Source of the DNA: Octopus vulgaris
Taxonomy: Eukaryota
Assembly (NCBI GenBank): GCA_951406725.2
Contig: OX597824.1
Coordinates: 51,584,001-51,648,000 of the forward strand
Direction: 5' to 3'
Length of the DNA stretch: 64,000 bases
Under the pieces are notes generated by a model. That model was given only the letters and a program-made list of their open reading frames with translations, made no database searches and had not been told where the DNA came from. The position numbers were made by a program, and so were the translations under genes. Shown here piece by piece: positions 1,000-64,000 of this stretch. Each line of letters starts with the position of its first letter. Within the stretch, counting starts at the first letter, position 1.

Positions 1000-1760
1000 T
1001 TTACATCACTTTACAAAGTAAAATTGTATATAATATGCCCATCTCTTCAAATTAATAGTGTCTTCCAAATTTCATGTTCTTTCAATAGTTATCAAGTCTG
1101 TTCTTGAACTGTTTGCTTTTCTTCAACCTAACAACCTTCCTTCCCTACTGATTCCAGTTTCTGTGAAACCTGTTTGTGACAGTTTGATGTCTTGTTAACT
1201 TGTTTCACTGCTTTACTAATTTAATAACACTCAGCTCCTTCATTTCTGTCTCTTCTATCACCTGATTTAATGTACTAATGAGGTCTGTTATCTCACATTC
1301 ATTTCAAGTTCAGATAGCTGCTACAGGTGTGAATTATCAGCATCATATCATCTTCATACTTATGATGATCATCATCATTTTATATGTTCTTCTATTGTGG
1401 TAAGAGATGGTGAGCTCTACTGTACAACATATTGCTACTTCCATCAGTCTTTTATCATGTCTAAAAGACCTGACTTCCTCAAGTCTTATCTTACCACTTC
1501 TTATGCTATTTTTCACAAGCTTTTAGTGACAGGACTCAAATGATTAATTTTTCAACCTAACTCAGCTCATTTTCCTTAACATCATGTTTTCATACCAGCC
1601 CAGTCACCAATATCAACTACTGTCTTTAATACCCAACTTTATTGCTACTTCACTTTTCATATAGGTTATTTTACATTCAACAAATTTCCTTGCCAGCCAT
1701 TTCAGATCTGCATTCACTTCCAATGTTTTACTAACATATTTCTTCACACTTTCTAGCACA
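1000..1760 (-). mobile_element. Highly decayed LINE (RT) remnant
   Basis: The minus strand reads YEDDMMLI at ~1335-1360, resembling a YADD motif. No intact ORF. Confidence 0.3.
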
Positions 1761-1815
1761 CATCTCATATGCTCAGCCTTTCACACATACAAAGAAATGA
1801 ATTTTTATCAACAGA

Positions 1816-2265
1816 GGCACAGATGTGGCTGTGTGGTAAGGAGCTTGTTTCTCCACATGGTTCCTGGTTCAGTCCCACTACGTGGCACTTTGGGCAAGTG
1901 TCTTTTACTGTAGCCTCAGGCTGACTAAAGCCTTGTAAGTGGATTTGGTAGACAGAAACTGAAAGAAGCCCATCGTGCGTGTGTGTGTGTGCGTGCGTGT
2001 GCGTGTGTGTGTGTGCGTGCGTGTGCGTGTGTGTGTGTGTCTGTGAGAGAAAGAGAATGAGTATGTGTTTGTCCTTCATTATGGTATAACAACCAATGTT
2101 GGTGTACTGATGTCTCTATAACTTAGCAGTTTGGCAAAAGAGTCCAATAGTATAAGTACCAGGCTTAAAAAAAAAGTACTGAGGATTGATTCATTTGGCT
2201 AAAAATTCTTCAAGGCAGTGCCCCAGCATAGCCACTGTCTAATGACTGAAATAAGTAAGAGATAA
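1816..2265 (+). mobile_element. tRNA-derived SINE with CORE-like block and internal (GT)n; further copies at ~54120-54490(+), 55555-55860(-), 56730-57090(-), 57575-57720(+)
   Basis: A-box-like tggctgtgtggtaag, B-box-like ggttcagtcc, CORE-like ggcactttgggcaagtgtct, and the shared segment ggatttggtagac.gaaactgaaagaagcc found in all copies. Confidence 0.75.
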
Positions 2266-3184
2266 GAAAAGAGGAAATGGGACCCTTTCAACTTTTATCT
2301 CTTCCTTATTCTAGTAATTATGCCTTTTTAAAAAAAAATTACTGCAGCCAACTCTGGTATTAATTAGATCACCTGCATAGGAGAATCTATTTACTGTGTA
2401 TTCTGAGATGTCTCAGCAGATCATAGTCCTTACTTCATGAGTGTTGCTACAGCTGACTACTGTTGAACAATTGAAAATAATAACAATGCTTGATGTCACA
2501 TGGTGGCTGTTGCACACAATTGTTACGTGTATGTGAGTTTGTATGCAGATGTGTAGGGGTCTCAGTAATAAATATATGTTCAGTGTAATTCTTCTATAGT
2601 TGCACTAATGTTGCATCCTGTGACCCTAAGTAATTGTGTTTCAATGAAATGTGTTTGCTGCTGGTCTTGTTTGTTTAGTCTTTTCAGTTCACAGTGACTG
2701 AGTAGACAAGGAATTGTACTACCTACTCTTTGATGATGAGTTCCATTCCACTGCTGGTATTTCAATGAGTTTTTAAGAATACACACATGCGACTGCCTTC
2801 CATAGAGTTTCTTTTTAACAATTTCATTCAGAAGGCATTTGTCAGCCCAAGGCTACAATAAAAGATATTTGCCCAAAGTGACACGCAGTACAATACAACT
2901 CAATGACCTTGTTATGAAGCATATTCTGTATCCAGACAGCCATGCTGTCAGCTATGTGCCTAGCAAGAATAACTTCAGCAGTTTTAATATCAGAAAAACA
3001 ACCAATCTCCAATGATAAGGAAATAGCAACACAGTAATTTGCTAGTTTATTAACATAAATAATAAAAATAACTCTTAAGATATTGTCGAATTCTATCCTT
3101 CTAAATACCCTACTCCTTAATCTCTTAGAACTTGCTTAGATATATAACATTATAAATATATATATATTTTTTTGTCCTTACAAC

Positions 3185-3460
3185 ACCTTTTTGATCTCCA
3201 TGTGTCTAACACACGTGGACATGCCTACAAAGTCAGAAAACAACACAGCTCCCATGACTTTCGGTAACATTTTTTCACGCTCAGAGTTGCTGAAGCATGG
3301 AATAAACTGCCTGTGTCAGTTGTTGACTGCCATGACACTGCATCCTTTAAGGCCCTCATGCTTTCCGAAATCCGCCGAAACTACACCTGATTATATATAC
3401 ACTTTAGATGAGTTGTAGTGCACCTGAGCACTGTACACAATTATTATTATTATTATTATT
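3185..3460 (+). mobile_element. 5'-truncated CR1/L2-group LINE 3' end with (ATT)n tail
   Basis: Translates SNTRGHAYKVRKQHSSHDFR*HFFTLRVAEAWNKLPVSVVDCHDTASFK, the typical TRGH...FF..RV...WN.LP..VV...FK C-terminus; ends in attattattatt. Confidence 0.8.
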
Positions 3461-3493
3461 TATACACACTAGATGATGATGATGTTTGCTATA

Positions 3494-3723
3494 CAGTTAT
3501 CCCTCACCATATCGTGGTCCACCTATTGCAGTTTATCATTTAAGCTTACATTGATTCCTCCATGGTGTTGTTTTGCATTTATAATAAAATAAATATATAT
3601 AAATTATAAAGACAATACAAAAAAATACAGTACAGTACTGTTTCTATTTTGTGGATTTTCACCTATGGTAGTGGCGGTGGGGGGGATTGGGAAGTAACAC
3701 TCGCAATAGTCGAGGGATTACTG
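3494..3723. mobile_element. Tigger/pogo-type MITE (230 bp)
   Basis: TIRs cagttatccctc / gagggattactg (1 mismatch), flanked by TA on both sides. Confidence 0.8.
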
Positions 3724-3744
3724 TACATGTTAGGAAATCTCTGG

Positions 3745-3787
<43 letters not shown>

Positions 3788-4454
3788 AAGATATTGCTCA
3801 GTCAAGAAGTGATGTCCAACAGGTACTCTGGATGTAAGTATGTGATTGTATGATAGTATTGAGATACATGATTACATAGTCTCATAGGACTGCATCGAGG
3901 TACTAAATAAGAAATTTACCTATATAGATTATGAGTTACAGAGATGATGAATAGGTTATACACCAATATGACATTACACTTTAGATACATTAAGAAAACC
4001 TTCTTAATACCTTCAGCTTAAAATCAACTGTGTGCAGTGCAGGTACATCGTCTTGTAGTTAGGGGTGTTGGTTTTATGATTTCTGAACCAGGCAGCATAT
4101 TGTGAGCTTGAGCAAGGCACTTCATTTGATATTGTTCTAACCAAGTGCTGGTGCAGCCCTCCCTCTCTTTTCAGTTGTCACATTCTTGGTGTTTTGAGTC
4201 AAAAGCAGGATAGCTGACAAAATTTCTATACCTGCTCATGACTACATAAGTATCTAAAACTATTAATGAGGACATGCATTGTGCTACCAAGTCATATTTG
4301 GTTGCATATTTCAGTTTTGATTTGGTTTCTACAGCTGGATTCCCTTCCTAACACCTATCACTTACTGAGTGCATTTTTTCCTCATGTCAGCTCTAGAGAA
4401 GTTGTCACGCTTTGATAAGACTAAAGGGTCCTCTCAAACCCACACTTAAAAGTT

Positions 4455-4520
<66 letters not shown>

Positions 4521-4600
4521 TGTTCCAACCCATGCTAGCATGGAAAGCGGACGTTAAATGATGATGATGATGATGATGTATACATACATACATACACATA

Positions 4601-7074
4601 CAGGCATACCTCAACTTAAGTTGTTTCAATTCAAGTCACTTTTGATTATATGTTGGTTTTCAAAAGTAATATATGGAAAAATAAAAATCAAGTCATTTTA
4701 CTCGATTGGATTTGTAAAATCACTAGAAAACAGTTAAAAGCACATAAAATCATGTTACTGTACAATAAATAAGAGTAAAAGCATATAAAATCATTTTAGA
4801 ATACGTACAGTAAATGTTAAGATACACACCATAAAGTAGTGTAGCTTAGTGAACAAAATCATGAAATCAGTTGTGTCGTCTTATTTATCGGTCTTTTGGA
4901 GCTCATATTGCACTGTAGTTCCGATATCTACTGTTAGGCGTCTTTGTCACTCGTGATTCCCACTATTGTATTGAATTCAGATTTGTTTATATCTGTTTGT
5001 CGGCTACTTTCTGTTTCTCATTCATTTGTAACTTTATTTTTTGCTCCTATGGCTCCTAAGAAAATTCATAGTGAAAGTGCTAAGTGTCATGCCATAATGC
5101 TGGAAGCTAAACTAGCTGATAAAATACCGTGAAAAAGGTGAAAATGTAGTAGCAATTGCATGATCTTTTGGGATGAGTGGGACAACTCTGTCAATGATTG
5201 TACATAATAAGGACAAGATTTTAGCACATATCTGAAGCCCCAGTGATGAAGAACACTGTCATCAATAAGAAAAGAGGCAAGATCTTTGAAGAAATGGGAA
5301 GTCTTCTTTCTCTTTGGATTGTTAGGTTGAATCGTCAACGTGCTACTATTAGTCAAGAAATCATTCAAGATTTCAAGTGTTGTCTTTGTTTGAGGACCTG
5401 AAAAAAAATACCCAGATAAGAAAGATGTAGAGTTCAAGGTAAGTCAAGGATGATTCATGAGATTTAAGGAGCAAAGTTATAACTCCATTAAGAAGCAAAG
5501 TGAAAGTGCATCAGCGGAATTTCCTAATGCATTAAAGAAAATCAATCATCAAAGAAAACGGGTTTGATCCTGAACAGATTTTTAACGTAGACAAAACTGG
5601 ATTGTATTGGAAAAAATTACCAGACCATTCATTCATTTCCAAGAAAGAGAAAAGGAGAAACCTATTCCAGGCTACAAGGTCTCAAAAGAACGTGTAACTA
5701 TTATGTTGGGAGGTAATTGTGCAGGAGATTTTAAGTTAAAGCCATTGCTTGTGTATCATGCACACAACCCCTGTGCCCTGAAGAATATACCCTAGGCATC
5801 TCTCCCTGTTATATGGCTGGCTAATTCAAAAGCATGGGTTACTGTTGTTGTTTTTGAAGATAATGCTCCTGGCCACCCGCAAAACATCGTAGATTTTGAT
5901 CCCAATGTTACCGTCATATGCCTCCCTCTGAACACCATGTCTCTTCTGCAGCCAATGGATCAGGGAATAATTGCTATCTTCAAGCGTTACTATATGAAGT
6001 GTATGCTGTGGCAAGCAATAGCTGCAACTGATCTTGATGATTCCATCACACTTTGTGACTTTTGGAAGAGATATGATATCTACAAGGCTGTACAGAAGAT
6101 AGCAGCGGCATGGAAGGATGTACAGAGCACGGCTATGAACGGTGTATGGAAGAAGCTATGCAAACAATTTGTGAATGATTTTAAGGGGTTTGATAATGTT
6201 GCCATCAACAAAATGTTGGTGACTACGAGCAAAGAACTGGAAATGGATTTGGAAGAGAAGGTTTTCACAGATGTATTTGAAAGACAAGTAGCCCCTGACA
6301 AACAAGGATTTGATAGTTCTTCATGAGCAGTAAAATAAAAAAGAAGAGGAAGTTTAACCTGACCCACGTCACTTCACCTGTAAGAAAATGCAGCAAGCAT
6401 TTGCATACATCAAAAAAGGTTTTTCTATGTTCGAGGATATGGACCCAAATGCTCAATGCTTTTCCAAGATTATGGGGGCTTGTCATGAAGCTTTTGCTCC
6501 TTATAATGTAATCCTTGAAGAAGAGAAGACAGTTCAAGGAACTTTCAACTGGTTTTTTAAGTGCATTGAACAAGAAGAACAGCCAGAGTCAGCTGTTGAT
6601 GTTGACAATCCATAGCCGTCTACATCTGTGATGTAAACCACCAAACTGTATGTACATACTGGTAAATTCAAAATAATTTAGTTTTTTTTTTACTATTGCA
6701 AAATAATAATTATTACTGAATTTGTTTTTTTAAGCTTAAAAAAGGATTTATTTTACCATGTCTTATTGCAAACCACATTCATAAATAAAGCATCCACGAT
6801 GTACGGTAAACATTGCCGAATTGTATTTGTCAATTTCGATTACCTTTTTTTTGTTAACTGTACTCTATTAAATAATATAAATTGTAAGCTTAAAATAGGT
6901 TTTTATTAATGATATATTATTGAAAATGCATTCATAAATAAAGTACAGAATTGGGAATGGTTATTATCGGTTTAGCCTAAAGACAAGTAAATTCAGTCTA
7001 ACCTAGAGACAAGTTAATTCGACTTAAGTCGTGTTTCCTAGAACCAATTAATGAAGTAGAGTGAGGTATGCCTC
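4601..7074 (+). mobile_element. Tigger/pogo DNA transposon with decayed CENP-B-like DDE transposase (~5049-6615)
   Basis: TIRs caggcatacctca (4601) and tgaggtatgcct (7062-7073). Transposase fragments MAPKK, FK.SQG.F.RFK, IFNVDKTGL, PGYK.SKERVT.MLGGN.AGDFKLKPLLVY, DNAPGHP, LQPMDQGII; several stops and frameshifts. Confidence 0.92.
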
Positions 7075-9681: not shown

Positions 9682-10528
9682 TCTTTATATATAAAAGAAA
9701 GGTTGTGTGTCTGTCTACTCCGATTTAGATTCCTAACTACTCCCACATTTTGCGATGCAGTTTAACCAAAACCGGGTATCTTATAGTCGTGATTCATATC
9801 GACCCTTTCTGGGTATTAGCGCGTGTCTACGCTGAGTCTACGATTTTACAAATAATTTACCATCATTTTTTTCCATTTTAATGCATATTTTTTTTAATAA
9901 AGGGAAGTAACTCTCAAACTTCACACCAATATGCGTGCTCATATGCGACGTAATATCACATCAGCAGCATTTCCTCACACCCTCCTTGCACTTGGCGAAG
10001 GCAAAATACCAGGGGATGAAAATGGTAATATTGCCATCGATTCCATTTGTACCATTGTTAAGACGCCTTCTGATCTCAGAGATTCAGTGTTCCCAGATCT
10101 ACAAGCTAATTATCAGAATATGGATTGGATTGGCAAAAAGGCTATACTGGCCCCGAGGAATAAAACTGTTCACCATATTAATGATGAAATGCTAAAACTC
10201 ATTCCTGGGGAAGTCTATGTATATCAGTCTATCGATACAACTCCTGACCCAGAGGACGTCATCAACTATCCAATAGAGGTACTCAATTCCTTTGAGCACC
10301 CCGGACTACCACCACACTTTCTCAAACTTAAAGTTGGTGCCCCTATAATGCTCATCAGAAATTTGGTTCCCCTAAAACAATGCAATGGCACACGTTTTAT
10401 CGTTAAGTCCTTATCTCCCACCGTAAACTTATATCAATATTTGCCTGAATAATCATCATAATTCAGTGCAATCATTAACAGTACTTTCAAGCAATTCAGC
10501 CCCAAGCAACGCCGGGCAATTCTGCTAG
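9682..10528 (+). mobile_element. Non-autonomous Helitron carrying a PIF1 helicase fragment (ORF 9931-10452)
   Basis: 5' a|TCtttatatataaaag; 3' hairpin gcccc..caacgccgggc followed by CTAG|t. Helicase motifs KAILAPRN...INDE, LNS..PGLPPH.LKLKVGAPIML.RNL...CNGTR. Confidence 0.9.
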
Positions 10529-10777: not shown

Positions 10778-11141
10778 TCTCTATATATATAAATGGCAAA
10801 ATGTCTGCATGTGTGTCCTTTATACAAATCCACAACTTTTCAGTTAGAGGGCTCGCACTTTCTATGGTCATTCAAAACCATCCAAAGGTGGTCGTGCACA
10901 TCTTTGCATTTCCTCAGTCACCCCGCAAAGCCATTCAAAAATCAATAGAATTGACTTTTTTGTGAATTTTCTATCCAAAACCCAATCAAAATGCCTGAAA
11001 CTTGATACGCCAATTGAATGCCAGCTATCTGTATGTGATTGGTCAGAAATTTGGACAGTACTCATGTGTATGTGCACATGCACGCAGCTGTATATGTATG
11101 CACTAGCATTATGACCCGGCAACGCCGGGTCGTAGTGCTAG
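10778..11141 (+). mobile_element. Short non-autonomous Helitron (364 bp)
   Basis: 5' a|TCtctatatatataaatg; 3' hairpin gacccggc aac gccgggtc then CTAG|t; inserted at an A|T site with no TSD. Confidence 0.9.
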
Positions 11142-12078
<937 letters not shown>

Positions 12079-12477
12079 ACAATAATTTTTTCTTGTCAGG
12101 AACAAAAAAAGGTTTAATAGGACTGCAATAGAAGTGCTCTATTGGAAGAGACAAAAATATCAAACTAAAATCATTGAACAAGCAAATACAAAGTCAACCG
12201 CATGTCATTTCATAATTCGAACATTTAATTATAGAATAAACATATAACCCGCAAGATGGAACAAAATTCATATATACAGCACATAATAATAATAATATGG
12301 TATGGTGCGAGAAAAATTCTTATCATTAAAACTTAGAATTAATATTCTAGTGATTCAAAGAGAATACAATTATAAACGGACTTAGAAAGCAAAATATAAT
12401 ATAAGTAATATATAAAAATATATATTTTTTAAAATCTTGATATCATCTACGACAGTAACTCTAGGGTAGTAAACTTC

Positions 12478-13872
12478 TTGGACGTTACCTTGTGTCTTAA
12501 TACCGGTCTATACTATCCCTTTCGTAAGACTAATAAATCGATAGCATATATCAATGTGTCATCCAATCATCCGAAATCCACAATAGATAGTATCATAACT
12601 GCGATTTCAACTAGAATATCCAATTTATCTGCGAACGAAGAGATTTTTGAGCAACATGCACCAGTGTATAATAATGCCCTAAGTTTAAGTGGTTTCAAGT
12701 CTAAAATATTCTATATCCTTAATACTAGACTAAAAAACAGGATGGCTGGTTTGCCAATTGAGCAAGTTGCAATTACTACAGATAAATACAATAATAAATA
12801 CTGTAATAATAATAGGTTTTTGAATAATAATTATAATAATAATAATACGTCTAAGAATAATAAAAGGCCTTTAAATAATAATAATATGTTTAAGAATAAT
12901 AATATGTTTAGGGATAACAGCAGTAAGGGTAGGTATAAGGAAATTAAAAATCCTGATAAGAAGTTAAACAAAACAGGAAGCTCACGGCCTAGAATAAGGG
13001 AAGTTATTTGGTTTGCTCCCCCTTTCTCCCTTAGAGTAAGGAATTTACCAAAACTATTTTTTAAGATTCTGAAGGAGAACTTCCCAAAGGACCACAAATA
13101 TTATAGCATCTGCAATAAGTCGACAATAAAATTCTCCTATTCTCTAATGCCTAACTTTGCTTCCATCATTGCTTCAATCAATAGAAGCAAGCTTACTAGG
13201 TGGAACAACAGAAAAAGTTCCTTTGAGGATGACCAAGGAAATGTGGTTGATAATCCTGTAAAGCTGAGTACCAAAGCTATAAATGGTCTACCTTTACCGG
13301 ACTCATCGAACCCATATAATAAGGGTAGTTTAGAGGGAAGGAATGAGCGAAACCCGTCTGGAACTGGAGATAAAATAAGTAAAGATAATAATAGGAAAAA
13401 AATTAGGAAAGGCCCCGAAAAGACATGTAACTGTAGGAAACCCAAATTATGTCCTTTGGGTGGTTCATGTCTGGTCACCAACGTAATATATAAATGTGTA
13501 GTTAGGGATGTAGATTATCTAAACAAATTTTATATAGGTAGTACGATGGATTTTAAGGCGCGATATAGGTCACACATGAGCTCTTTTACTAACGAAAAAT
13601 ACTTTAACTCAACTACACTTGCATCGCATATACACAACCTGAGAAAGAACAATAAGAATTATTTCCTAGAATGGTCCATCATTTCTAAAATCCCAAACTT
13701 CAAGAGAAATATCAGCAAGTGTAGGCTATGCATAAGGGAATCACTTACCATCCTTAGGTGTTATGGACCGCACATTCTGAATAAATTTACGGACGTGATC
13801 CCCTTTTGCGTACATAAATTTTCTTCTACATTCCTGAAAATCTACAGGAATAAAATAAATTGTAGTAAGTAA
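12478..13872 (+). CDS. Penelope-like ORF, C-terminal part: RT thumb, Asn-rich linker, Cys cluster, GIY-YIG endonuclease
   Basis: (FL)DVTL, YI...SNHP, W.F.PPFS, K.SYS..PN, CNCRKPKLCPLGGSC, VIYKC...FYIG.T..FK.RY..H, C.LC..E and LN motifs. No stop codons in 464 codons. Confidence 0.9.
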   Translation: MDVTLCLNTGLYYPFRKTNKSIAYINVSSNHPKSTIDSIITAISTRISNLSANEEIFEQHAPVYNNALSLSGFKSKIFYILNTRLKNRMAGLPIEQVAITTDKYNNKYCNNNRFLNNNYNNNNTSKNNKRPLNNNNMFKNNNMFRDNSSKGRYKEIKNPDKKLNKTGSSRPRIREVIWFAPPFSLRVRNLPKLFFKILKENFPKDHKYYSICNKSTIKFSYSLMPNFASIIASINRSKLTRWNNRKSSFEDDQGNVVDNPVKLSTKAINGLPLPDSSNPYNKGSLEGRNERNPSGTGDKISKDNNRKKIRKGPEKTCNCRKPKLCPLGGSCLVTNVIYKCVVRDVDYLNKFYIGSTMDFKARYRSHMSSFTNEKYFNSTTLASHIHNLRKNNKNYFLEWSIISKIPNFKRNISKCRLCIRESLTILRCYGPHILNKFTDVIPFCVHKFSSTFLKIYRNKINCSK

Positions 13873-14496
13873 TGGATTTACGAAAAGATAAGTTGTAAAA
13901 AAATAAAAATAACTGATTTAGATATTGCAGGATTTGAAACCTCGAAGGCTCAATTTAATTTAATTTAATTTTAACCCAATTAATTCAGTTTAATTTAGTT
14001 AAGTAAACCCATTCTTTTTGAGTATATAGAAAGTAAATAAATTGAAAAATAAAAGTATTTAAGTTTTGCAGGATTTGAAACCACGGAGGCTCTTTTTAAG
14101 TCAATTTAGTTCAATTTTAATTAATTGGAATTAATTTTGATTTGAAATTTTTTTTTTTTTTTTTTTACCGCTTCCTCTACTGATTTAAAAGAAAAAATTC
14201 TTCACTGCTTTGTCTTTTGGGCTATCCGTGCATGAATACTCAGTCTGTGTTTGTCATTTTGCTGTTTATAACCGGTTTGTGAATTTAACTATTGTTGCTT
14301 TGTTTTACATATTGTGTATTTTGGGTAAAAACTGTCAGTAGCCTTCGCGCTACGTATTTAATTCCCCCCTGCGGGGGAATTGTTTTGAAACAATTGTTGT
14401 GAAACAGTTTAAAACATACACAAAAGGCCTGTGAAGCCAAAATTTTTGAAGGCTTGTCAAAGCCAATTGAAAAGGCTTGTAAAGCCACATCTAGAG

Positions 14497-15767
14497 ATGG
14501 AGACTCCTATCTCATACTCACCTGTATCAGGTGAAGAAAGTTCACCGACGGTGACGCCAGAAAAAGAAGAGGCCCCAGCGAAGAAGTTCGCAGAAGTTGC
14601 AGGAAAAAAACAAAAGAAAATCAACACAGATAAGAGCAACTTAGAAAAGTATGAAGCACTTTTGAAAAAGGAAGGAAATGAAATAGCAGTGGAATCAGAC
14701 GTCAGAAAGAAAGAAGAAGTAGAAAAAAAAGGATTATCTACAAGACATACAATACAACGATGAAAAGCATTCAAAGAGTGGAGGAAAAAAAAATAGAGGA
14801 TTGTCTGAAGACAATAAGGAAAGACATTACGTATATAAACCGTGGCAGAAAGTTTGGAACAGTTGAGGTGAGGTTTAGGACTGAGGAGATAGCCAAGAAG
14901 CTATCGACCGAACCTCAAAAAGCGGAGAATATAGTCCTTCTTCCCCTGTACAGAGGCAGAAGGACCTCAAAAATATTAATGAAAAATATTCCGCCAGAGG
15001 CGGACGCCACGTGCCTGGTGGCGGCAGTGATGTTGAGCCTGGAGGACAAGATCACTATCCTCCAGGCTACAGTAGAGGAGGAGGGGTTTTGGCAAGGCCA
15101 ATGTATCACAATGGCGATTCAGGCGGAGGTCCAAACATTAGAAGAAATACCGGAGATATTGAGGCTCAGTGAGGAGGAGAGGGTGCTAGTGTTTGTGGAG
15201 GGCAGAAAGCCGAGGTGCTTCGGCTGCGGTAAAAAGGGGCACGTAAGAGCGGAGTGCCAACCTAAACCGCAGGAAGCAGCACCGCCGGAAAAAGAAAAAA
15301 CAGAAGAGAAAACAGAAGAGAAAACACCAGAAACTACAGAAACCAAAGAGGTAGCAGAAGCAACAAGTGGCGAAGAAAAGGAAAAAGAGGAGGGGTGGTC
15401 AAAAATTACCAAAAAAAACCGGAAAACAGAAACCACCCCTCAGAAGGAGAACCAAAAAAAGAGGAAAGAAGCGACTAATACATTTATGGCCATTAAGGCT
15501 ACCAACAACAGGCTAGTTAATGTTTTGGCAGCCATGGCCAAAGTGGAAAAAATGAAAAAAACAAAAGACCGTATTGTTTATAAGATAGGCCGGAAGGATT
15601 ACGGACGGATAAAATCCGAATTCTTTCACGACGTGGGCCCTCTGAGATTGGACATATCTCCATATTTATACGAGGGTCTGCGTCGGACTCCCCCACGAGC
15701 CAAGGAAAAAAATAAAAGCGAAGAAGACGACGAAAAACAAGTCAAACAAGTCGAACCACTGATATAA
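14497..15767 (+). CDS. Tx1 ORF1 (gag-like, CCHC zinc knuckle), split by a frameshift near the A8 run at 14723-14730
   Basis: ORFs 14431..14763 and 14760..15767 overlap in different frames; CFGCGKKGHVRAEC knuckle; K/E-rich tail. Confidence 0.8.
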
Positions 15768-15775
15768 GGTAAGCT

Positions 15776-18700
15776 ATGGATTGCATTTATGTTGGTTGTT
15801 TAAATGTGCGCGGCCTGGGATCAAGCGGGAAGCAAGGTCGCTTCCTTAATGATATTAGGTCGCGTAATTTGGATGTTATTGTTGCTACAGAAACCCGGTT
15901 AAAGGGGCCAAGAGGTCTACTCCCGCTGTTTGACGGCTACGAGAGTTTTTTCTCTCCGGCCAGTCCTACAGGTGGGGGTGGGGTGTTGGTCCTATTAAAA
16001 AGAAAGCGGGTTTTTGAGAAAAAGTTAATTTTTTCAGACCCAGAAGGTAGGCTGGTCGTCATGGATTTGACGTTCAGTAACGGTAAAGTTATCAGACTGG
16101 TTGCAATTTACGCACCCAACCATACAGGGCAAAGTGATTATTTTTGTGAACTAGAAAACTTTCTTGGTACTTCACATTCATTAGTTGTGCTAGGAGACTT
16201 TAACACAATTTGCAAAGCGGATGTAGATTGTGTTGGCTCGCGTTCAGATAGAAAAGGTAACAGTGGCTTCATGGATCTGCTAAGCCGCTTTGAGCTAGCA
16301 GATCCTTATAGGTTGGAATTTCCGAACGCTCCATTGTGGACATGGTCAAACAGCGACGGATCTTCCAGGTAATACATAGATAGGATACTAATTAGAAAAG
16401 TAGACAGAAAAATAGCTAAGTGTCCACAGTTTTACATGGTCAGCTACAGTGATCATAAAATGGTCACCTGTAAGCTTGACATAGATAAGGTTAAAAATAG
16501 AGGCTCCGGTTACTGGAAACTTAATACGTCCCTTTTGGCGATTAAGGAGTACAGAGACCGGATTAGGACTATAATTCAGAGGGCGCTGTCTGGTGCCATC
16601 ATTAATAACAAATGGTGGTATGCCCTCAAGCGAGCCATCAAATTCGAGTCAATTAGATATAGCATAGGATTAGTGGCTAGAGAGGCTAGGAGGGAATCTA
16701 CTCTAGTTAAGGAATTAGAGGAAGCCTTGAAAACTGGCTCTGCGGTTCAGGTGGCGGCCAAGAGACTGGCGTTAAACCAGCACCTCGAGGCCAAACACAT
16801 GGGCTGCATAGTCAGGGCTAGGATCCGCGCAATGGGTTGTGAAGGAATCAACGTTGTGAGATGGGCCCGAGTGGTGGAAGCTCAGCGTGGTAACGACGCC
16901 ACGATTCGATCTATGACGAACCAACAAGGTGAGTTGATAAACGAGCCCGAGGAGATGTGTGAGGCCTTTCAGGAGCACTTCGCTCAGCTTTTCGGTGAGT
17001 GCGGCGGACTGGACAGGAGGAGGACCTTTACGGACCTCCTCGACGGTCTTCCGTGCTTATCGGGGCGAGATGCGGAGGGCTGTGAAGGGCCAATCACGCC
17101 TGGGGAGGTGGTTGAAGCGATGGCGGACTGCGGTGCGGGCAAAGCGCCGGGTTTAGATGGTCTACCCTACGAGTTATATAAGAGTATGCCAGACTTGTTC
17201 GGGCACCTACTGGTGGAGGTCTATGCGAACTGGCAGCAGAACGGGTTCGTACCCAGATCTGTGCGCCGGGGAGTAGTGACACTCGTCAGAAAGGACCCGA
17301 GCAAGGGGGAGTGCATTGATAATTTTACGCCCATCACTCTGCTAAACACAGAGTTGAAGATTTTGGCCAAAGTGTTATCGAAAAGATTGGCGCGTGTCGC
17401 GGATGGTCTGATCGGGGAGGCACAGACATGTGCCGTTCCCGGCAGAACCATTCAGGATAATCTCCATCTTATGCGGTACACTATAGAGGGGTTTAATAGT
17501 GATTCTGGCAAGGGTGGGGCACTGGTCCATTTAGACCAATCTAAAGCGTTCGATAGGGTCGACCATCGCTACCTGGTATCTGCCCTGGCACAGTTCGGGC
17601 TGGGCCTTGGCTTCCTCAGGTGGATTATCCAAATTTACGACATCGACTCGGTAGTTCGGGTGAACGGCTTCTTGTCGAAGCCGTTCAACATCAAGCGCTC
17701 GGTTCGTCAAGGGTGTTCGCTCTCCCCGCTTTTGTATGTGATGGCTCTTGAGCCATTACTGCGAAAACTGAGTGGCATCCCGAGACAGCCAGGTAGTGGA
17801 AAATCGGTGTCAGCGTACGCGGATGACATCACCATCATCGTAACCGAAATGGATCACCTACGTAAAGTAGGCAAGGCCATAGAGGTTTACGAGACGGTGA
17901 CAGGAGCAAAAGTTAATCGCGAAAAGTCAGTCGGCTTGCAACTCGGCACCTGGAGAGGCAAGTCGATGCCTCCTGACAGCGTCGTGGGACGTTGGACGGA
18001 GGGTCCGATTAAGTTGCTAGGGGTTTGGTTCGGTCCAGACCTCCAAATAGAGAAGAATTGGGGCGAGGTATCGAGCAGGGTGGCTGCAGTAACCAAGACC
18101 TGGTCTTGGCGGTGGCTATCCCTGAAAGGGAGGGCGGAGGTAGCCAATGTGTTTATCGCATCGGTTATCACCTACCGCCTTTCCGTCGTTCCTTGCCCTG
18201 ATTTGTGGTTGATCAAGTTGGAAAGACAGCTCTTCTACTTCTTGTGGAAGGGCGGGAAACCACTTGTGAAACGCTCTACTTGCTGTCAACAACCGTTAAA
18301 GGGTGGGCTAGGGATGCCTTGGCTGATGATGCGCAGACATGCGCTGAGGTTAAGACATCTGTGGCTCTACCTGGATGGTGAACGGGTGTGGTCTCCGCTA
18401 GCAAAACTGATGTTTCCCAAGTTCACTAGTTTCGGTGGATGGGAAACCTGGCTGAATCGTAGATCAAAACTAGGCACATGGTACACGGAGTGTCGCAAGG
18501 CTCTCCTGCTATTCCGTCGCTCGGGCAACGCCTGCGGTGGGGGTTCCACCACATTCTTCTATAGAGGGTTGGTAGAGGCGGAATGTGAAGATACCTTGGG
18601 GGAAATCCTGGGTCTCGACGATAATCAGCTGGCCAGTCTGTTCCGACGTACGTTCGAGCCGAAGACACTGGACAACTTCCAGAAGTCTCTGGCATGGCAA

Positions 18701-19168
18701 TGCTACAGAGGAGCTCTACCTGTTCAGGATAAACTCGCAAGGCACGGTGGCCAAGACAGTCCGATATGTCCAAGATGCGGGCGGGATAGGGAAACCGTCC
18801 CGCACGCTATTGTTCATTGCTCAGTCGTGTCTGAGGTGTGGGTTTATGCCGAACAGCTGTTGTCAAGCACACGAAGAGTACAGCTGTCGACTGAGTCTAT
18901 TACAAAAATTGACCCACCAGATTTCCTCGCGAAAGAAGGTAAGAATTGTTTTCTCGTTGTGGTAGCAATTGCGAAAGAGGTGATATGGAAGACGAGAATG
19001 AAAGGTTTACGGTCAGGCAAGTTCATATCCGGCCCTGGTTTGATGAATTACTTCATCTTTCACCTGAAAAGGAAGATAGGGCTGGAGAGAAAATGCCTGA
19101 CTAAGAGAGTGTATGAAGAACGATGGAAGGATGTAGCACGAAAGTTGCGAATGGATGACACCACATAA
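15776..19168 (+). CDS. Tx1 ORF2 (APE endonuclease, RT, C-terminal CCHC finger) with one in-frame TAA at 16370-16372
   Basis: APE motifs LNVRGL, ETRL, IYAPN, LGDFN, IDRI, SDH; RT motifs KAPGLDG, LDQSKAFDRVDH, RQGC.LSP, YADD; CPRC..ETVPHAIVHC. ORFs 15776 and 16436 are in the same frame. Confidence 0.92.
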
Positions 19169-19499
19169 ATGTAAAACAAGACGAAACCAAAGTATCAGTG
19201 GTGAGGCGGGGCTCGTGGGGTCCGAGCTAAACCCGCCCCCACTCCATCCGTAATGTCTTCCGGTCTGTTCTTCATTCGATTTTATATTTTTGTATTTTTG
19301 TGAATTTTTAATCTCATCTTTTTTGTAACTCCATCCGAGAATCTGACCCCACATCAGGTTGTATTGTCCCCTCTATGTTCGTCCCTTGTGGGTAATAATA
19401 AAACATATCCGTGCATGAATACCAAAGTGGGAAAGCAAACAACACCGTACGGGCCTGGTGCGTGATGGCTATCTTTGCTTTTATATATATATATTTTTT

Positions 19500-19576
19500 T
19501 CCCCTGACGAAGGAGGTATTATCTGAATGCACCCTAGTGCTTTAAACATAATACACCCCTGAAATGGCCATAGGGA
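19500..19576 (+). ncRNA. Type-I hammerhead ribozyme in the Penelope-like 3' repeat
   Basis: Stem I tccc (19500-03) / ggga (19573-76); core CUGACGA 19504-19510; stem II aggaggtattat / ataatacacccct; GAAA 19561-64; minimal stem III with palindromic GGCC loop; cleavage triplet AUA 19570-72. Confidence 0.8.
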
Positions 19577-20024
19577 TAAGTAAAAATGATTTCCTTCTTA
19601 TATATAAGGCTTATTTTACCTGATTAAGATTTCTAAACGATGAACCTTATTTTACTTTATTTACACGATATATATATATATATTATATTTTTATATGCTC
19701 CTATATGTATATATATTTATATATATTTTATATATTTTTATATGCCTATATTTTTATATACCTATATATTTTTATATATTACTTATATTATATTTTGCTT
19801 TCTAAGTCCTTTTATAATTGTATTCTCTTTGAATCGCTAGAATATTAATTCTAAGTTTTAATGATAAGAATTTTTCTCACACCATACCATATTATTATTA
19901 TTATGTGCTGTATATATGAATTTTGTTCCATCTTGCGGGTTATATGTTTATTCTATAATTAAATGTTTGAATTATGAAATAACATGCGGTTGACTTTGTA
20001 TTTGCTTGTTCAATGATTTTAGTT

Positions 20025-20059
<35 letters not shown>

Positions 20060-34428: not shown

Positions 34429-35500
34429 AAAGAACACAATGTTAGAAAAGCAGAATTGATGAAAGAATTTGAAACCCAATTAAAACTGAAAAATGAGGAA
34501 CTCAAGAAACTAAAAGCTCAATGTGAGAAGTATGAAGTTCTTTTGGGGATTGAACAGATGACACAGTCAGCTTGGAAGTATGCACAAGCTGCTGAGATGG
34601 AATTGGAGAAATCACATTTGAAACCAAATGAGCTGACTCCAAATATGAATTACAGTCTTTCAGATACTCCAAGTCCATCTCAGTACCACACTCCTGCAGC
34701 AACACCTGACAAAATGTTGGCAGACACTCCTCTGAATTACATCAATCGAGATGAGGACAAATCTCCAAATGCAGTGGAAAACATTACACAGAAGCATCAA
34801 CCTCTCAACCGATGCCTTATTTCTCCTGAAGGGGATGATTCCATGTGTTTCACAGTGTTGTCACCAACCTCATCACCCATGAAAGATGATAACCAGCTGT
34901 ATATGATGAGAGACACGTGTGCTTCACCTCTTTCTGTACCTCCTTCTTCCTCCAGCATTCTTCAATCATCTCCAACTTCTCCCTCTGCACAAACTTCATG
35001 CTCAATAGTTCCATCTCAGCCTGCACCAGTGGGAACAGTTTCTCCACCTCCACCACCACCACCACCACCACCACCACCACCACCACCATTACCAACCTTA
35101 CCCAGTATCAGCTTAACATCTTCTACACCACCTCCTCCCCCACCTTTGCCTGGTGCAGGCCCTCGTGTTCCACCTCCTCCCCCACCATTGCCTGGTGCAG
35201 GCCCTCGTGTTCCACCTCCTCCCCCGCCATTGCCTGGTGCAGGCCCTCGTGTTCCACCTCCTCCCCCACCATTGCCTGGTGCAAGCCCTTGTGTTCCACC
35301 ACCACCACCACCACCACCACCACCGCCACTGCCTGGTGCAGGCTCACCTTGCCCACCACCACCACCACCACCTCCACCATTACCACGAATGCCTGGGTTG
35401 AGACCAACCCCACCTCCAGCACCACCACCTCCATCCTCAAGTGACACTAAATCATCACCTACGCTCCCTTTCACAGGATATACAATGGCTATGTATGACA
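34429..35500 (+). CDS. FMN: Formin large exon: coiled coil, S/P-rich linker and FH1 polyproline domain
   Basis: Within ORF 34408..35508. Acceptor tttgccag, donor GACA|gtaagt, 1072 bp (phase 0 to 1). Multiple PPPPPPLPG tracts. Confidence 0.95.
35128..35296 (+). repeat. 42-bp coding tandem repeat (PPPPPPLPGAGPRV) x4 in FH1
   Basis: ccacctcctccccca/gcc.ttgcctggtgcaggccctcgtgtt repeated almost identically. Confidence 0.92.
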
Positions 35501-40889: not shown

Positions 40890-43680
40890 ATGATGAAGAT
40901 GATCATCATCATTGTTTAACGTCCATTTTCCATGCTGGCATGGGTTGGATGATTTGACAGGTCTGGAGATCCAGCAGCTGCACCAGGCTCCAATCTGATC
41001 TTGCAATGTTTCTACAGCTGGATGCCCTTCATAATGCCAACCACTCTAAGATTGTAATGGGTGCTTTTTACATGCCACCAGCATAGGAGCCAGTCAGGCA
41101 AACCTGGCATTGATCACGTTTGGGTGGTGCTTTTTACATGCCACTGGCATGGGAGCCAGTCAGGGAGCATTGGCCCCAGCTACGATATTGGTTTTACTTG
41201 ACTCAACGGGTTTTCTCAAACATATTATATTACCTGACGCATCAGGGGTATTCTTAACTGGGCCGGACATGCGTGGCTGTGATCTCACTTTAGTTGCCGG
41301 GTCTTCTCAATCACAACATATCTCCAAAGGTCCCTGTCTCCTGTCATTGCTTCTGTGAGGCCCAATGTTTGAAGGTCATGCTTCACCACCTCATCCCATG
41401 TCTTTCTGGGTCTACCTCTTCCACAGGTTGTTTCTACAGTTAGGGAGTGGCACTTCCTCACACAGCTGTCTTCATTCGTACGTAACACATGGCCATACCA
41501 GTGCAGTCGCCTCTCTTGCACTCCACATTTGATGCTTCTCATGCCCAACTTTTCTCTCAGGGTGCTTACACTCTGTTGTGTATGCACACTGACATTACAC
41601 ATCCAGTGGATCATACTAGTTTCATTTCTTTCAAGCTTATGCATGTCCTCAGCATTCATGGCCCATGTTTCACTGCTGTGTAGCATGGCAGTTCACGCAC
41701 ATGCATCATACAGTCTACCTTTCACCCTGAGCGAGAGGCCCTTAGTTACCAGCAGAGGTAGGAGATCCCTGAACTTTGCCCAGGCTATTCTTATTCTAGC
41801 TGCTACACTCTCAGAGCAACCACCCCCACTACAGACTTGGTTGCCTAGGTAGTGGAAGCTATTGACTATTTCTAGTTTCTCCCACTGGCATGTGATGGAA
41901 TCTGTGTTCTGTACATCTTCAGTGTTTATTGGCCCAGTGCATCTGCCACATGCAAAAACTATTTTCCTGGTTAACCTTCTTTTGATAATGCTGCACCTTT
42001 TATGTGTCCATAGCTTACACTGGGTACATTTTACAGAGTTTCTACCCACGCCTTTTCTACAGATCGAGCACGGCCATCTACCTGAAGTGGGTTGTGATTT
42101 GACAGCCTTCCTACTTATTAAGACTTTGGTTTTTGCTAGGTTAACCCTAAGGCCCTTCGATTCTAGACCTTGCTTCCACACGCTAAACTCCGTCTCCAGT
42201 TCTGGCAGTAACTCGGCTATTAGAGCAAGGTCATCAGCATAGAGGAGCTCTCAGGGGCAGCCTGTCTTGAATTCCTCTGTTATTGCCTGGAGGACTATTG
42301 GAATTCTTCACTATACTCATTGTCAACTCTCACCTTACTGATAGCATCCCTGTACAGGGCTTATACAGCTCTCACTAGCCACTCGTCTATCCCCAGTTTC
42401 CACATTGACCACCAGATAAAGGATTGAGGGACCCTGTCAGAGGCTTTCTCCAAGTGAACAAAAGCCAAGTACAGAGGTTTATCTTTGGCTAGGTATTTCT
42501 CCTGCAGTTGCCTTACCAGAAATATAGCATCAGTGGTGCTTCTGCTTGGCACAAAACCAAACTGCATCTCATCTAGGCTAACTCTTTCCCTAATTAGTTG
42601 GGCTATGGCCCTCTCTGTAACTTTCATCACCTGATCCAGTAATTTGATACCACTGTAGTTATTTCTATCTAAAGCATCACCTTTCCCCCTTGTAGCAGTT
42701 GACTGACTATGGTGCTGCTACACTAGTCATTGGGTATGACTCCTTCATGAACTACCTGATTTACAATGCGGGTGACCAGACCATAACCCACACTGCCCAA
42801 TATTTTAAGCATCGCAGCGGTGATTCCTGATGGGCCAGGTGTTTTCCCTATCTTCATATCCTTAATTGCTTTATCTACCTGGGTACTGTTGATTTGGATA
42901 ACTGGTCCCTCAATTTGGTCAACCTTTGGCAGACTACACTTTCAGCAGTCTTTCATAATGGCTTCTCCAAGCCTCTTTCTTTGCAGCATCATTAAACACA
43001 AGGGCACCATCATCCATGCGGACACATTTCTCTCCTATGACATCATGGTTTTCTCTCACACACAGTCTTGCAATCCGAAATATTTCAGTTCTTTGGTTCT
43101 CATGTCACTGAACATTGGCAAACCTCTTTTCTGCTATTCTCTTGGCTATATATACCTGTCTCCTAGCTTCCCTTCTGGCTATCTGATACAGTTCCCTGCT
43201 ACTCCCACTCTTCCAGGCCTGTTTCTTTGCTCTGTTGGACCTGTCTACAGTATTATTCCACTACCATGTTACCCTAGGTCTGGAAGGGACTTTGCACCAG
43301 CACAGATTTGGTCTGTGGCACTCAACAAGCTGTCTTGCAGGAATTCCCAGCTGCCTTCTATGTCACAGGACTGTAGTTCTTCCTCCCTATTGTCAAATTT
43401 CTCAGTAAGGATATCCCTAAATCTCTGACCATGTGAAGGGCTCCTAAGCTTCCAAGTCCTTCTTTTCTAGATTGGTCTGCTTTTTGGCATCCTTCTGGCC
43501 TCGAGTCTAAAGTCACTAATAACTAGTTTATGTTTGGGGGCGGGGTACATTCTTCACCAGGGAGGGTCTTTGTATTTAAGAGCAACCATGCATCCTGCAG
43601 TCAGGTGAGAATGAAATCGATCTGGCTAGTAGAGTCACCTTATTGATAAGTTATCAGATGGCTAGCTGGCTTCCTGAAGC
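40890..43680 (-). mobile_element. Decayed RTE-clade LINE nested in the hAT element
   Basis: ORF fragments with QFGF.P.RSTTDAIF, YADD, the PHD-like Cys cluster, RRL.WYGHV.R and GRGRP.KTW; 3' tail ccaacccatgccagcatggaaa..ggacgttaaac + (GAT)n. Confidence 0.92.
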
Positions 43681-46639: not shown

Positions 46640-48810
46640 TTCCTCTTTTACTTCCTTAGAGTTGGCACTGTCAATGTAAGCACATTGAAAGGTAGGTCTG
46701 ATGAGATTGTTGAGATGCTTGAATGGAGGCATGTTGATGTGTATTGCATTCAGAATGAAAGGTGGAGGGGAGCTCCAGCCAGGTTCCTCACAGGCAAGAA
46801 AACGTAGATATAAAATATTCTGGAAAGGCAATAGTGATAGGGTAGATAAAATGGGCATACTTCTAGCTGAGAAATGAGCAGATAAGGTGATGGAGATAGT
46901 GTGCAATAGAATACTTAAGCCAAGGATAGTTTTGCAAAGTAGTACAGCAACAGTGATCTCTGACCATGCCCCTCAACTGGGTTTGCCAAATGAACAAAAG
47001 AATTGTTTTTAGACTACCTCAAAGGCAAATGACAATGACCTTGGTTGGTGACTTCAATAAACATGTTGGGCAGCAACCATGTGTCTTCTGCAGTGTGCAT
47101 GGTGGCCATGGATTTGGTTCCTGTAATGTGGAGGGAATAAGGCTTCTGGTGTTCTGTTATGTAAATAACTTAATGAGCTGCAACACCAACTTGAGGAAGC
47201 CAGCCAGTCACCTGATTGTATATCAATCTGGAGGCCAAGCTAGCCAGATTGATTACATTCTCATCAGAAAGTGAGATCTATGGTTGCTCGTAAATGTAAA
47301 GACCTTCCCTGGTGAACAATGTACCCCTCAGCATAGGTTAGTCATTAGTAACTTCGTTCAGTCTAGAATGATTCCAAGAAGTAGACCAGTTAGGAAAAGA
47401 AAGATTTGGAAACTTAAGGACTTTTGAATAGCCAAGGATTTAGGAATATCCTAAATGAAGCATTTAATGAGGAGGAGGAGGAGTTGCAGACATGCAACAT
47501 AGAAGATAACTGGAAGTTCTTATGGGACAGCTTACTGAGAGCCACAGAGCAAATTTGTGGCTAACGCAAATTTGTAAACAGACCCCAGGGTGACATGGTA
47601 GTGGAACAGTGTAGCAGACAGGGCCTTTAGTGTGAAGTAACAGACCTGGAAGGACTGGAAGTGTGGTGGTAGCAGAGAACTATATAAGATAGCTAGAAGA
47701 GAAGCTAGGAGACAGGTATACTTATTCAAGGAAGAAGTTTGCCAATGTTTTGTGGCATGGGGATCAAAGGCTTGAGGTGTTTCAGATTGCAAGACAGTGT
47801 GTCCAAGAAAGCCGTGATGTGAGAAAGAAGAGCAAATTTGCATGGATGATGGTTCATTTGCAGTTAGTATTTCTGTGAAGAAAGAGGCTTCTAAATGTCC
47901 CTATGAAAGGCTGCTGAATGTAGAGAATGCATGGGAGAGGGGGAGCCTTCTTTATGTGGACCCAACAGAGGAACTGGCTATCTGAACTGACAGTAGTTTA
48001 GATAAAGCATTTAAGTATATGAAGACAGGGAATCTGCTGAGATGCTCAAAATATCTGGCAATGTGGGACATGGCCTAGTCACCCATATAGTTAATCAGAT
48101 TGTTCACAAGGGACATACCCAACGACTGGTGTAACATCATTAGTGAACTGCTACAAAGGTAAAGGTGATGCCTTAGGCAGAACTATTTACAGAGTTATCA
48201 AATTGCTGGACTAGGTAATGAAAGTTGCAGAATGGGTCATCACTCAATTAATTAAGAAGAGAGTTAGCCTAGATGAGATGCAGTTAGGTTTTATTCCAAG
48301 AAGAAGCACCGCTGATGCTATTTTACTAGTGAGGCAACTTCAGGAGAAGTACCTAGCCAAAAACAAACCTTTGTATTTGGTTTTTGTTGACACGGAGAAG
48401 ACCTTAGACAGGGTCCCATGCTCCCTTATCTGGTGGACAATGCAGAAACTAGGGCTAGATGAGTGGTTGGTGAGAGCTGTGCAAGCCATGTACTGGGATG
48501 TTGTCAGTAAGGTGAGAGTCAGCAATAAGTATAGCAAAAACTTTAGTGTGCAGGTAGTTCACCAAAGATTGGTTTTTGGCCCCTTCTTGTTTATCATGGT
48601 CCTCCAGGCCATAACAGGAATTTAAGACTGGCTGTACTTGGGAGCTCCTCTATGCTGATGACCTTGTTTGCTCAATCACTACCAGAACAAGAGAAGAAAT
48701 TTCAAGTGTAGAAGAAAGGACTGGAATCAAAGAGCCTTAAAGTTAATTTGCCAAAGACCAAAGTCCTCATAGATAAGGAAACAGACAAATCACTGATCCT
48801 TAAGGGAAGG
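46640..48810 (+). mobile_element. Decayed RTE-clade LINE (APE plus RT), 3'-truncated
   Basis: VGTVNVSTL.GR..EI, IQ..RW.G, GDFN.HVG, SQIDYIL, QLGF.P.RST.DAI, YADD; many stops. Confidence 0.9.
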
Positions 48811-62773: not shown

Positions 62774-64000
62774 TATGAAAGGTTGCTGAATAAAGAAAAT
62801 GAATGGGATAAAGAGAGTCTGCCGAATGTTGACCCAACAGAGGGACCAGCTATCCGAGTTGATAGTTCCGTGGTAGCTAAGGCAATTAGAAGCATGAAGA
62901 CAGGGAAAGCCCCAGGCCCGTCAGGAATCACTGCAGAGATGCTCAAAATGTCTGGCAGTGTCGGCTATAGCCTAGTCACCCGTATAGTTAATCAGGTGAT
63001 ACACAAAGGAGTCATACCCAATGACTGGTGTAGCAGCATAATAGTCAACTGCTACAAAGGTAAAGGTGACGCCCTAGATACAAATAACTACAGAGGTATC
63101 AAGCTGTTGGATCAGGTGATGAAGGTTACGGAGAGGGTCATAGCCCAACTAATTAGAGAGAGAGTTAGTTTAGATGAGATGCAGTTTGGGTTTGTGCCAG
63201 GGAAAAGTACCACTGATGCTATATTCCTGGTAAGGCAGCTGCAGGAGAAATACCTAGCCAAAGATAAGCCCCTGTACCTGGCTTTTGTTGACATGGAGAA
63301 AGCCTTCGACAGGGTCCCCCGATCCCTTATCTGGTGGTCAATGAGGAAATTAGGGATAGATGAATGGTTAGTGAGAGCTGTGCGGGCCATGTATAGGGAC
63401 GCTGCTAGTAAGGTGAGGGTTGGCAACGAGTACAGTGAAGAATTCCGGGTAGAGGTAGGGGTCCACCAAGGCTCAGTCCTCAGCCCCCTCCTATTTATCA
63501 TAGTCCTCCAGGCAATAACGGAGGAATTCAAGACAGGATGCCCTTGGGAGCTCCTCTATGCTGATGACCTTGCTCTAATTGCTGAGTCGCTATCAGAACT
63601 GGAGGAGAAGTTTCAGGTGTGGAAACAAGGATTAGAATCGAAGGGCCTCAGAGTCAATCTAGCTAAAACCAAAGTCGTAATCAGTAGGAAGGTAGACAAA
63701 TCACAAACGCCTTCAGGTAGATGGCCCTGCTCGATCTGTAGAAAAGGTGTAGGTAGAAACTCTATAAGATGCACCAAGTGTAAGCTATGGACACATAAGA
63801 GGTGCAGCAATGTCAAAGGAAGGCTAACTAGGAAGATGGTTTTTGTATGTGGCAGATGCTCAGGAACAATAAACACTGAAAATGCTCTGAGACCAACTTC
63901 CGTCACTTTCCAGGGAGAAAAACTAGAAATAGTTGATAGTTTTCGTTACCTAGGTGACCAAGTCAGCAGCGGGGGCGGGTGTGCTGAAAGTGTAACTGCT
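62774..64000 (+). mobile_element. Young 5'-truncated RTE LINE; RT reading frame open to the window end
   Basis: Hand translation from YERLLN through GKAPGPSG, NYRGIKLL, QFGFVPGKST, FVDMEKAFDRV, GVHQGSVLSP, LYADD and the Cys cluster to FRYLG shows no stop. It is absent from the ORF track because it has no terminator in the window. Confidence 0.93.

Follow-up and report, generated by a model that had tools for sequence, protein, structure and literature searches.

Several long interspersed nuclear elements (LINEs) of the Tx1 group are known to insert into other transposons: Tx1L in the piggyBac element Tx1D, Tx1-Mar and SINEU in Mariner-N4_AMi, Tx1-9_AMi in Harbinger, and Tx1-8_Crp and Tx1-4_AMi in long terminal repeat (LTR) elements (PMC4494074). 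SINEU and Tx1-Mar include copies with 5′ extensions derived from their target, and transcription driven from the flank has been proposed for them (PMC4494074). In R2Ol, an element of ribosomal DNA (rDNA), annealing of read-through RNA raises insertion (PMC6530143). Penelope-like elements (PLEs) of the Hydra type encode a C-terminal GIY-YIG nuclease without a CCHH motif, carry a CxCx5C linker and insert into (TA)n (PMC8557442), and the pseudo-LTRs (pLTRs) of rotifer PLEs contain a TATA-like box and an initiator (PMC3846280). Here we describe a 64,000-nucleotide stretch of the Octopus vulgaris genome (the window; contig C11, 51584001–51648000), in which a PLE, a Tx1-like LINE and a hammerhead motif are nested as a sequence-only reading had first described. 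We searched the 2.8-Gb genome for related copies; C-numbers denote its contigs. We found that the PLE pLTR upstream of the hammerhead is a true hotspot for Tx1-type insertion, with at least six separate landings. The explanation that we favour, with moderate confidence in it as a whole, is that the window holds a truncated Hydra-clade PLE carrying a Tx1-like LINE at the predicted transcription start of the PLE.

The octopus elements resemble the transposon-targeting Tx1 LINEs in that an APE-type LINE and non-autonomous partners share a 3′ tail, occupy set positions in another transposon, stand in tandem around the target-site duplication (TSD), and include copies with target-derived 5′ extensions. 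They differ in the target, which is the predicted promoter of a PLE (besides a Helitron), in their partners, which are 1.7-kb elements with open reading frame (ORF) 1 only, in a position that tracks a TATA-like box, and in a low specificity at the family level (PMC4494074). Host promoter use and RNA-borne target bases that aid insertion, as we propose for the octopus LINE, are shared with the R2 and R1 elements of rDNA, whose endonuclease specificity is strict, whereas octopus copies only a few percent apart can have different repeats as their targets (PMC6530143). The ORF1-only elements are non-autonomous and encode ORF1 alone, as does HAL1 (half-L1), but unlike HAL1 they have a Tx1-type tail, a site bias and tandem arrays (PMC5753468). 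We found no PLE named as a Tx1 target in the literature searched, a search that left aside supplements and Repbase, either of which could hold such an annotation, and none in the parts covered of the octopus repeat annotation PMC13282606 or of bioRxiv 10.64898/2026.07.22.740005, in which retrozymes are treated as non-autonomous PLEs. New here are a protein-coding PLE as the target, ORF1-only families at its predicted start, and evidence from comparing hosts with inserts for repeat insertion at one base.

A recurrent landing site in the Penelope-like element

The LINE (14240–19405; all features lie on the plus strand unless stated otherwise) is full length, has no poly(A) tail and splits the PLE between two perfect 17-bp TSDs (14223–14239 and 19406–19422). 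The window contains the 17-mer at these two places only, and empty PLE copies elsewhere carry it once, within uninterrupted sequence; this bears out the original description of a GIY-YIG PLE split by a LINE. An assembly artefact is unlikely, as a second copy has the same junctions and many empty sites exist. The hammerhead core begins 81 nt past the 3′ TSD, in agreement with the distance of about 80 bp first given.

To collect further copies of the site we used the hammerhead. A 16-nt core pattern had 90 exact matches in the genome, compared with 4 for a reversed control; among the loci collected, 98 rows matched with one mismatch allowed, and removing 13 without the second half and 3 unrelated ones left 82 PLE hammerhead rows. 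Sixteen of the 82 have a Tx1-type insert directly upstream, always in the sense orientation and with all insertion points inside a stretch of about 75 nt, and 17 empty rows retain an intact TATA-like box and insertion site. Eight of the 16 filled rows are a single inverted locus on C28 that has been duplicated four times, and the filled rows therefore reduce to nine loci. That locus (C28, 9.3–11.1M) consists of an inverted PLE dimer, each arm of which holds ORF1-only inserts, and the flanks of its four duplicates are about 98% identical; both arms carry an element of family B with the same 5′ junction, 98.7% identical between them. A separate search pattern, which required a Tx1 tail shortly upstream of the core, gave no matches and missed the copy on C23 by one base, so that pattern counts are lower bounds.

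Full-length family members occupy the site in the window, on C25 and on C23, the last belonging to a different LINE subfamily, whose insertion point is a further 58 nt or so downstream and is accompanied by a short deletion of target sequence. The remaining occupants, which are the commonest at the site, are ORF1-only elements of 1.6–1.8 kb from three families about 67–80% identical to one another. They share the tail of the LINE and a single nick, 10–15 nt upstream of the nick in the window, and show TSDs of 13–21 bp or a target deletion, as well as tandem pairs in both orders. Head-to-tail arrays of 1.7-kb Tx1-tailed units also occur elsewhere, with 15 tails at C5:100.95M and 5 at C2:158.83M among the tails listed.

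A tree of 63 host pLTRs gave eight changes, at least six of them forced by starred branches, and a tree of 37 inserts gave at least five, with four PLE-site rows unlabelled in it. The chance expectation of such recurrence is 0.001–0.006, assuming 1000–5000 Tx1-type copies. In small samples of top hits, 11 of 30 ORF1-only loci (4 of 23 after collapsing duplicates) lie in the PLE pLTR; by family in the insert tree, all 8 rows of family B and 3 of the 5 rows of family C are at the PLE, again from few, top-hit rows.

For the full-length family we inspected the flanks of 40 of the 41 best 3′-end matches. Twelve copies share one site, and in 10 of these a Helitron-type 3′ end (hairpin and CTAG) lies within 300 nt; from the known features of Helitrons we take this main target to be a Helitron. 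Seven further copies lie at two other recurrent sites, three in the PLE (window, C25 and C23) and 18 at other places, three of these before another hammerhead-like repeat. One of these 18 flanks, C10a, which a regular expression had called PLE, proved on inspection not to be this PLE and was dropped from the PLE count. Among the 26 matches to the LINE 5′ end, PLE sequence lies upstream in the window and C25 only. With more than 20% of flanks in one repeat as the criterion for targeting (PMC4494074), the LINE family is Helitron-targeting (12/40), and its 3/40 in the PLE pLTR stay below that threshold. The sequence-only reading had raised the possibility of a Tx1 family specific for the PLE pLTR, and had suggested searching both termini and aligning the flanks, with copies in unrelated flanks speaking against it. 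This search recovered the same-site insertion in the window and C25, and the recurrent landing site, where the window's own lineage has likely inserted twice at the same base, upholds part of the idea; the notion of a PLE-specific family does not hold, as 37 of the 40 close copies lie elsewhere, and at the family level the outcome named as speaking against it is largely what we observe.

Predicted promoter position and competing explanations

A TATA-like box of the PLE, TTTAAAA (14184–14190), presumably part of its promoter, lies 39 nt before the LINE nick. Eighteen empty PLE rows start within the 23 nt at or upstream of the TSD start, compared with one in the next 56 nt upstream (p = 3e-9, with bins chosen post hoc, 5 rows unplaced and many other rows starting further downstream). 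From this clustering we infer that the insertion site is the PLE transcription start, with a predicted start zone at 14202–14223 that coincides with the position of ORF1-only insertions in other copies. The same box stands 29–30 nt before the ORF1-only nick at three PLE sites, and a TATAAAG lies 39 nt before the nick at the Helitron site. Of five non-tandem ORF1-only sites that lie outside PLEs, three have a TATA-like box at −29 to −31, against a background of 1–2% per 3-nt slot.

The window and C25 offer a closer view of the process. Their LINEs are 1.1% apart, with 24 derived sites in common and identical junctions at both ends, and they are the only two copies with that 3′ junction. The PLE host in the window nevertheless shares alleles at 13316, 13476, 14183, 19585, 19805 and 19913 with empty copies, above all one on C17, and shares none exclusively with the C25 host, against about 14 expected for a composite that had aged in one piece. 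Since the hosts are not sisters despite their sister LINEs, the pair is most simply explained by a second insertion at that base, and the window and C25 likely represent two insertions at one base, as judged from these alleles. Segmental duplication is ruled out for this pair, as the flanks are unrelated, and our first reading, that the PLE had carried the LINE to C25, was downgraded because the host alleles group with empty copies.

Stray copies point to RNAs that carry host sequence. A pattern for the 5′ leader of the ORF1-only family A has four genome matches, three of which lie outside PLEs yet begin with PLE-site bases; this suggests that these strays derive from source RNAs begun in the PLE site. 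Such 5′ ends parallel those of SINEU-2B in Mariner-N4 (PMC4494074). More generally, stray copies of each subfamily tend, by eye and without statistics, to start with the first 3–6 bases of the main target.

We favour, again with moderate confidence, a mechanism in which Tx1-type elements insert behind TATA boxes at start sites, take over the host promoter, and are steered back to the same base by host sequence at both ends of their RNA. Elements directed to a start site just behind a TATA box would be transcribed from the captured host promoter. Polyadenylation after the terminal AATAAA would leave some target bases on the 3′ end of the RNA, and these may then pair with nicked DNA at another PLE copy, and the 5′ leader with the sequence upstream of it. 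The window lineage would obtain ORF1 protein, and the ORF1-only elements ORF2 protein, in trans; a frameshift in ORF1 is common to the window LINE and its C25 sister, which means that ORF1 protein must come in trans if the second insertion is true.

A number of observations weigh against this mechanism. The start site, the poly(A) site and read-through are all predictions from DNA sequence; the TATA pattern was set after two of the three off-target cases had been seen, and six 5′-truncated, off-target members of the full-length family whose TSDs are clear have no TATA-like box. Outside the PLE lie 37 of 40 full-length-family loci and 19 of 30 ORF1-only loci. The ORF1 broken in both sister LINEs fits passive copying better than self-mobilisation, and the presence of family B in both arms of the C28 dimer means that PLEs probably carry passengers, which inflates the counts. 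Finally, the genome searches scored the best 40 candidates, and the junction patterns covered sense inserts only.

Passive copying is also the core of the main alternative, in which a few insertions into PLE masters were spread as composites, including those of the window and C25, by the PLE reverse transcriptase (RT), template switching, gene conversion and segmental duplication. It would account for composites that are 98.3% identical over 7.6 kb while their flanks, truncation points and tails differ, for a LINE and a host of similar age (1.1% and 1.4%), for the broken ORF1 in both sisters and for the eight C28 rows that are one locus in four duplicates with B in both arms, and PLEs are able to move foreign DNA between pLTRs (PMC3846280). 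We nonetheless consider it unlikely, as on either side of the LINE the window host belongs with empty copies (the informative sites being 40 nt upstream and 163 nt downstream), so that a double switch or several precise losses would be needed; moreover, the unequal TSD lengths and the three insert families in different host subfamilies require separate events in any case. We are more sceptical still of targeting by the enzyme or by chromatin alone, through a loose endonuclease motif or open promoter chromatin, with the RNA-borne host sequence as a passive feature. The recurrence of the TATA spacing at unrelated sites would agree with it, as would nick sites that have little in common beyond a pyrimidine before the nick and the view that the endonuclease mainly sets the target (PMC4494074), but strays that start with main-target bases, including those of ORF1-only elements that lack a nuclease (by eye), and the identical junctions of the window and C25 at both ends weigh against it.

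A very improbable reading is the original one, of a dedicated Tx1 family that parasitises the pLTR and whose read-through RNA is cleaved at 19572 by the PLE hammerhead to form its 3′ end. The intact core in 69 of 82 copies, the sense orientation of all 16 inserts upstream of the hammerhead, a sister LINE subfamily shortly before a different hammerhead, and DNA without a poly(A) tail speak for it. Its difficulties are that the main family target is the Helitron site, that most copies end in an AATAAA-type tail whatever their flank, that helix II of the hammerhead closes with A-U rather than the conserved G-C, and that this dimer-type hammerhead is the only one in the window, a monomer of this class having been inactive in vitro (PMC4209133). 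The claim of 3′ trimming thus finds no support, and trimming of LINE RNA by the hammerhead is unlikely, the least supported of the options. As PLE promoters are followed by a hammerhead, so that both LINE and hammerhead lie downstream of the same promoter, their proximity is best read as a by-product of this shared position; the hammerhead is part of the PLE and likely has no role in the LINE cycle.

Changes of target among site-specific LINEs are usually put down to changes in the endonuclease, though the question is open. In the octopus, LINEs that are nearly identical, and partners without a nuclease, use different repeats; one lineage seems to have been caught on its way from a Helitron to a Penelope promoter, and the host-derived ends of its RNA offer a cause that can be tested. 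We advance more tentatively, as an idea short of an expectation, that octopus-type Tx1 elements home to TATA-box starts of RNA polymerase II, capture the promoter, return to the identical base in further copies of the repeat through host sequence at both RNA ends, and can so switch targets (Helitron, retrozyme, Penelope promoter) without a change of enzyme, and that about one third of promoter-bearing Penelope loci in this genome have been colonised in this way. If RNA ends and TATA spacing set the site, it could be possible to reprogram targeting without protein engineering. The inserts would also mark the predicted PLE transcription start, which is poorly mapped in this class, as one retroelement colonises the promoter of another.

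The host element and its hammerhead

The PLE ORF (12433–13872) is 5′-truncated and encodes 479 aa: the end of the RT region, an Asn-rich insert, the CxCx5C linker and the GIY-YIG nuclease. It has no Pfam match, and sequence searches of the PDB likewise gave no recognition; one named homologue of the protein was found, from Argonauta. When the C-terminal region of a natural PLE copy was modelled, the structure best matched the GIY-YIG nuclease I-TevI (Z 9.6, root-mean-square deviation 2.4, 90 aligned), followed by T4 EndoII (Z 8.1), and Foldseek returned the same top matches at E about 0.1. The linker and the CxxC and CxH motifs that flank the conserved E and N are invariant across a 36-row alignment and present in the window ORF, with no CCHH. 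The RT region is truncated in the window; DKT and YRDD motifs occur in the copy at C5:50.45M and RWR in that at C8:78.5M.

The left end of the element abuts a (TA)n-rich microsatellite (11138–12075, no strand), the target of the PLE insertion, and consists of an inverted distal copy of the pLTR (12076–12424, minus strand) that includes an 81-nt tail (12076–12156) found on this arm only; most other inverted PLE copies likewise have the tail on one arm. The remaining pLTR (19423–20030) ends in (TA)n, and the two arms (12157–12424 and 19763–20030) differ at 5 of 268 positions. In its (TA)n insertion, inverted arm and tail the window copy agrees with the Hydra clade, and the features of the host and its sites together fit that clade. 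The likeness to Hydra-clade PLEs extends to GIY-YIG, the linker, CxxC/CxH, DKT, RW(R), the hammerhead, (TA)n and an inverted 5′-truncated arm; the octopus PLE departs from them in an Asn-rich insert after the RT core, a promoter heavily colonised by LINEs (PMC8557442), and a tail of 81 nt, about double their 30–40 (PMC8557442; tail literature, PMC11167929). The Asn-rich insert (12790–12920) varies in length among copies and resembles the N-rich segments of rotifer PLEs (PMC3846280).

The hammerhead (19500–19576, predicted cleavage after 19572) is complete by motif as a type I core, with CUGANGA, GAAA, NUH and three helices: a 4-bp helix I, a long helix II and a 2-bp helix III with a palindromic loop. 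No other hammerhead turned up in the window. Among the 82 PLE copies, 69 have an intact core, and 66 of these 69 have TGGCCA as the helix III loop region. Helix II is closed by A-U instead of the conserved G10.1-C11.1 pair. An Rfam search of the window returned no hammerhead among 75 matches at E ≤ 1, only microsatellite-driven miRNA-type and other weak matches, and the minimum free energy fold of the region is not unusual (z −1.16). A single minimal PLE hammerhead from Schistosoma is reported not to cleave in vitro, and dimers to cleave at a low level (PMC4209133). The octopus motif is like the minimal PLE hammerheads in being type I with a short helix I, a long helix II and a palindromic helix III that suits cleavage as a dimer, and unlike them in its A-U closure of helix II and in matching no Rfam model (PMC4209133). 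When contigs from four presumed-RNA runs were aligned to 13900–20030, at least two spanned the predicted cleavage site and, among the contig matches listed, none spanned the LINE 3′ junction or had a poly(A) end; contigs cannot show transcript ends, and we draw no inference from either.

The LINE, its relatives and neighbouring repeats

ORF1 of the LINE (14497–15767) has one CCHC knuckle, below the Pfam cut-off, and its frameshift lies near 14725. ORF2 (15776–19168) contains APE endonuclease, RT and zf-RVT domains by Pfam; it has a premature stop at 16370–16372 and lacks 3 nt near 17639, and is open over 1132 codons in the C25 sister. The LINE was first called near-intact, which is accurate for its length and not for its reading frames. 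Its best solved relative is human L1 ORF2p (E 2.6e-66). The 113 LINE homologues that we collected hold no reliably labelled Tx1 references for an RT tree, and the name Tx1-like therefore reflects anatomy, namely membership of the L1 group and the ORF1/ORF2 architecture. The AATAAA noted earlier near the 3′ end is present at 19397–19402, in a tail common to the ORF1-only elements and an abundant short interspersed nuclear element (SINE).

This SINE, found at 32264 in the window (minus strand) and at many other loci, has the LINE 3′ tail, which suggests that the LINE clade mobilises it; none of the 82 hammerhead rows has the SINE at the PLE site. A general pattern of a tail followed by a hammerhead gave 21 matches, and among the 20 checked were 16 SINE tails and 2 LINE tails before a convincing, different hammerhead. 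The sister LINE subfamily shortly before a different, canonical-looking type I hammerhead, in a retrozyme-like repeat, is found at C2:63.54M and C3:181.43M, where the nick shifts slightly between copies.

Directly left of the PLE microsatellite, the window contains part of a Pif1 helicase (Pfam Pif1_2B) together with a Helitron-type 3′ hairpin and CTAG (9901–10452 and 11096–11141); this Helitron-type 3′ end resembles the one behind the main target of the LINE family. Further along, 42-bp tandem repeats at 35050–35430 read as polyproline runs, for which an exon of a formin-like gene is a guess, and another repeat is present in three related copies (79–86%; 41798–42935, 48141–48543 and 62816–64000), one of them in the opposite orientation.

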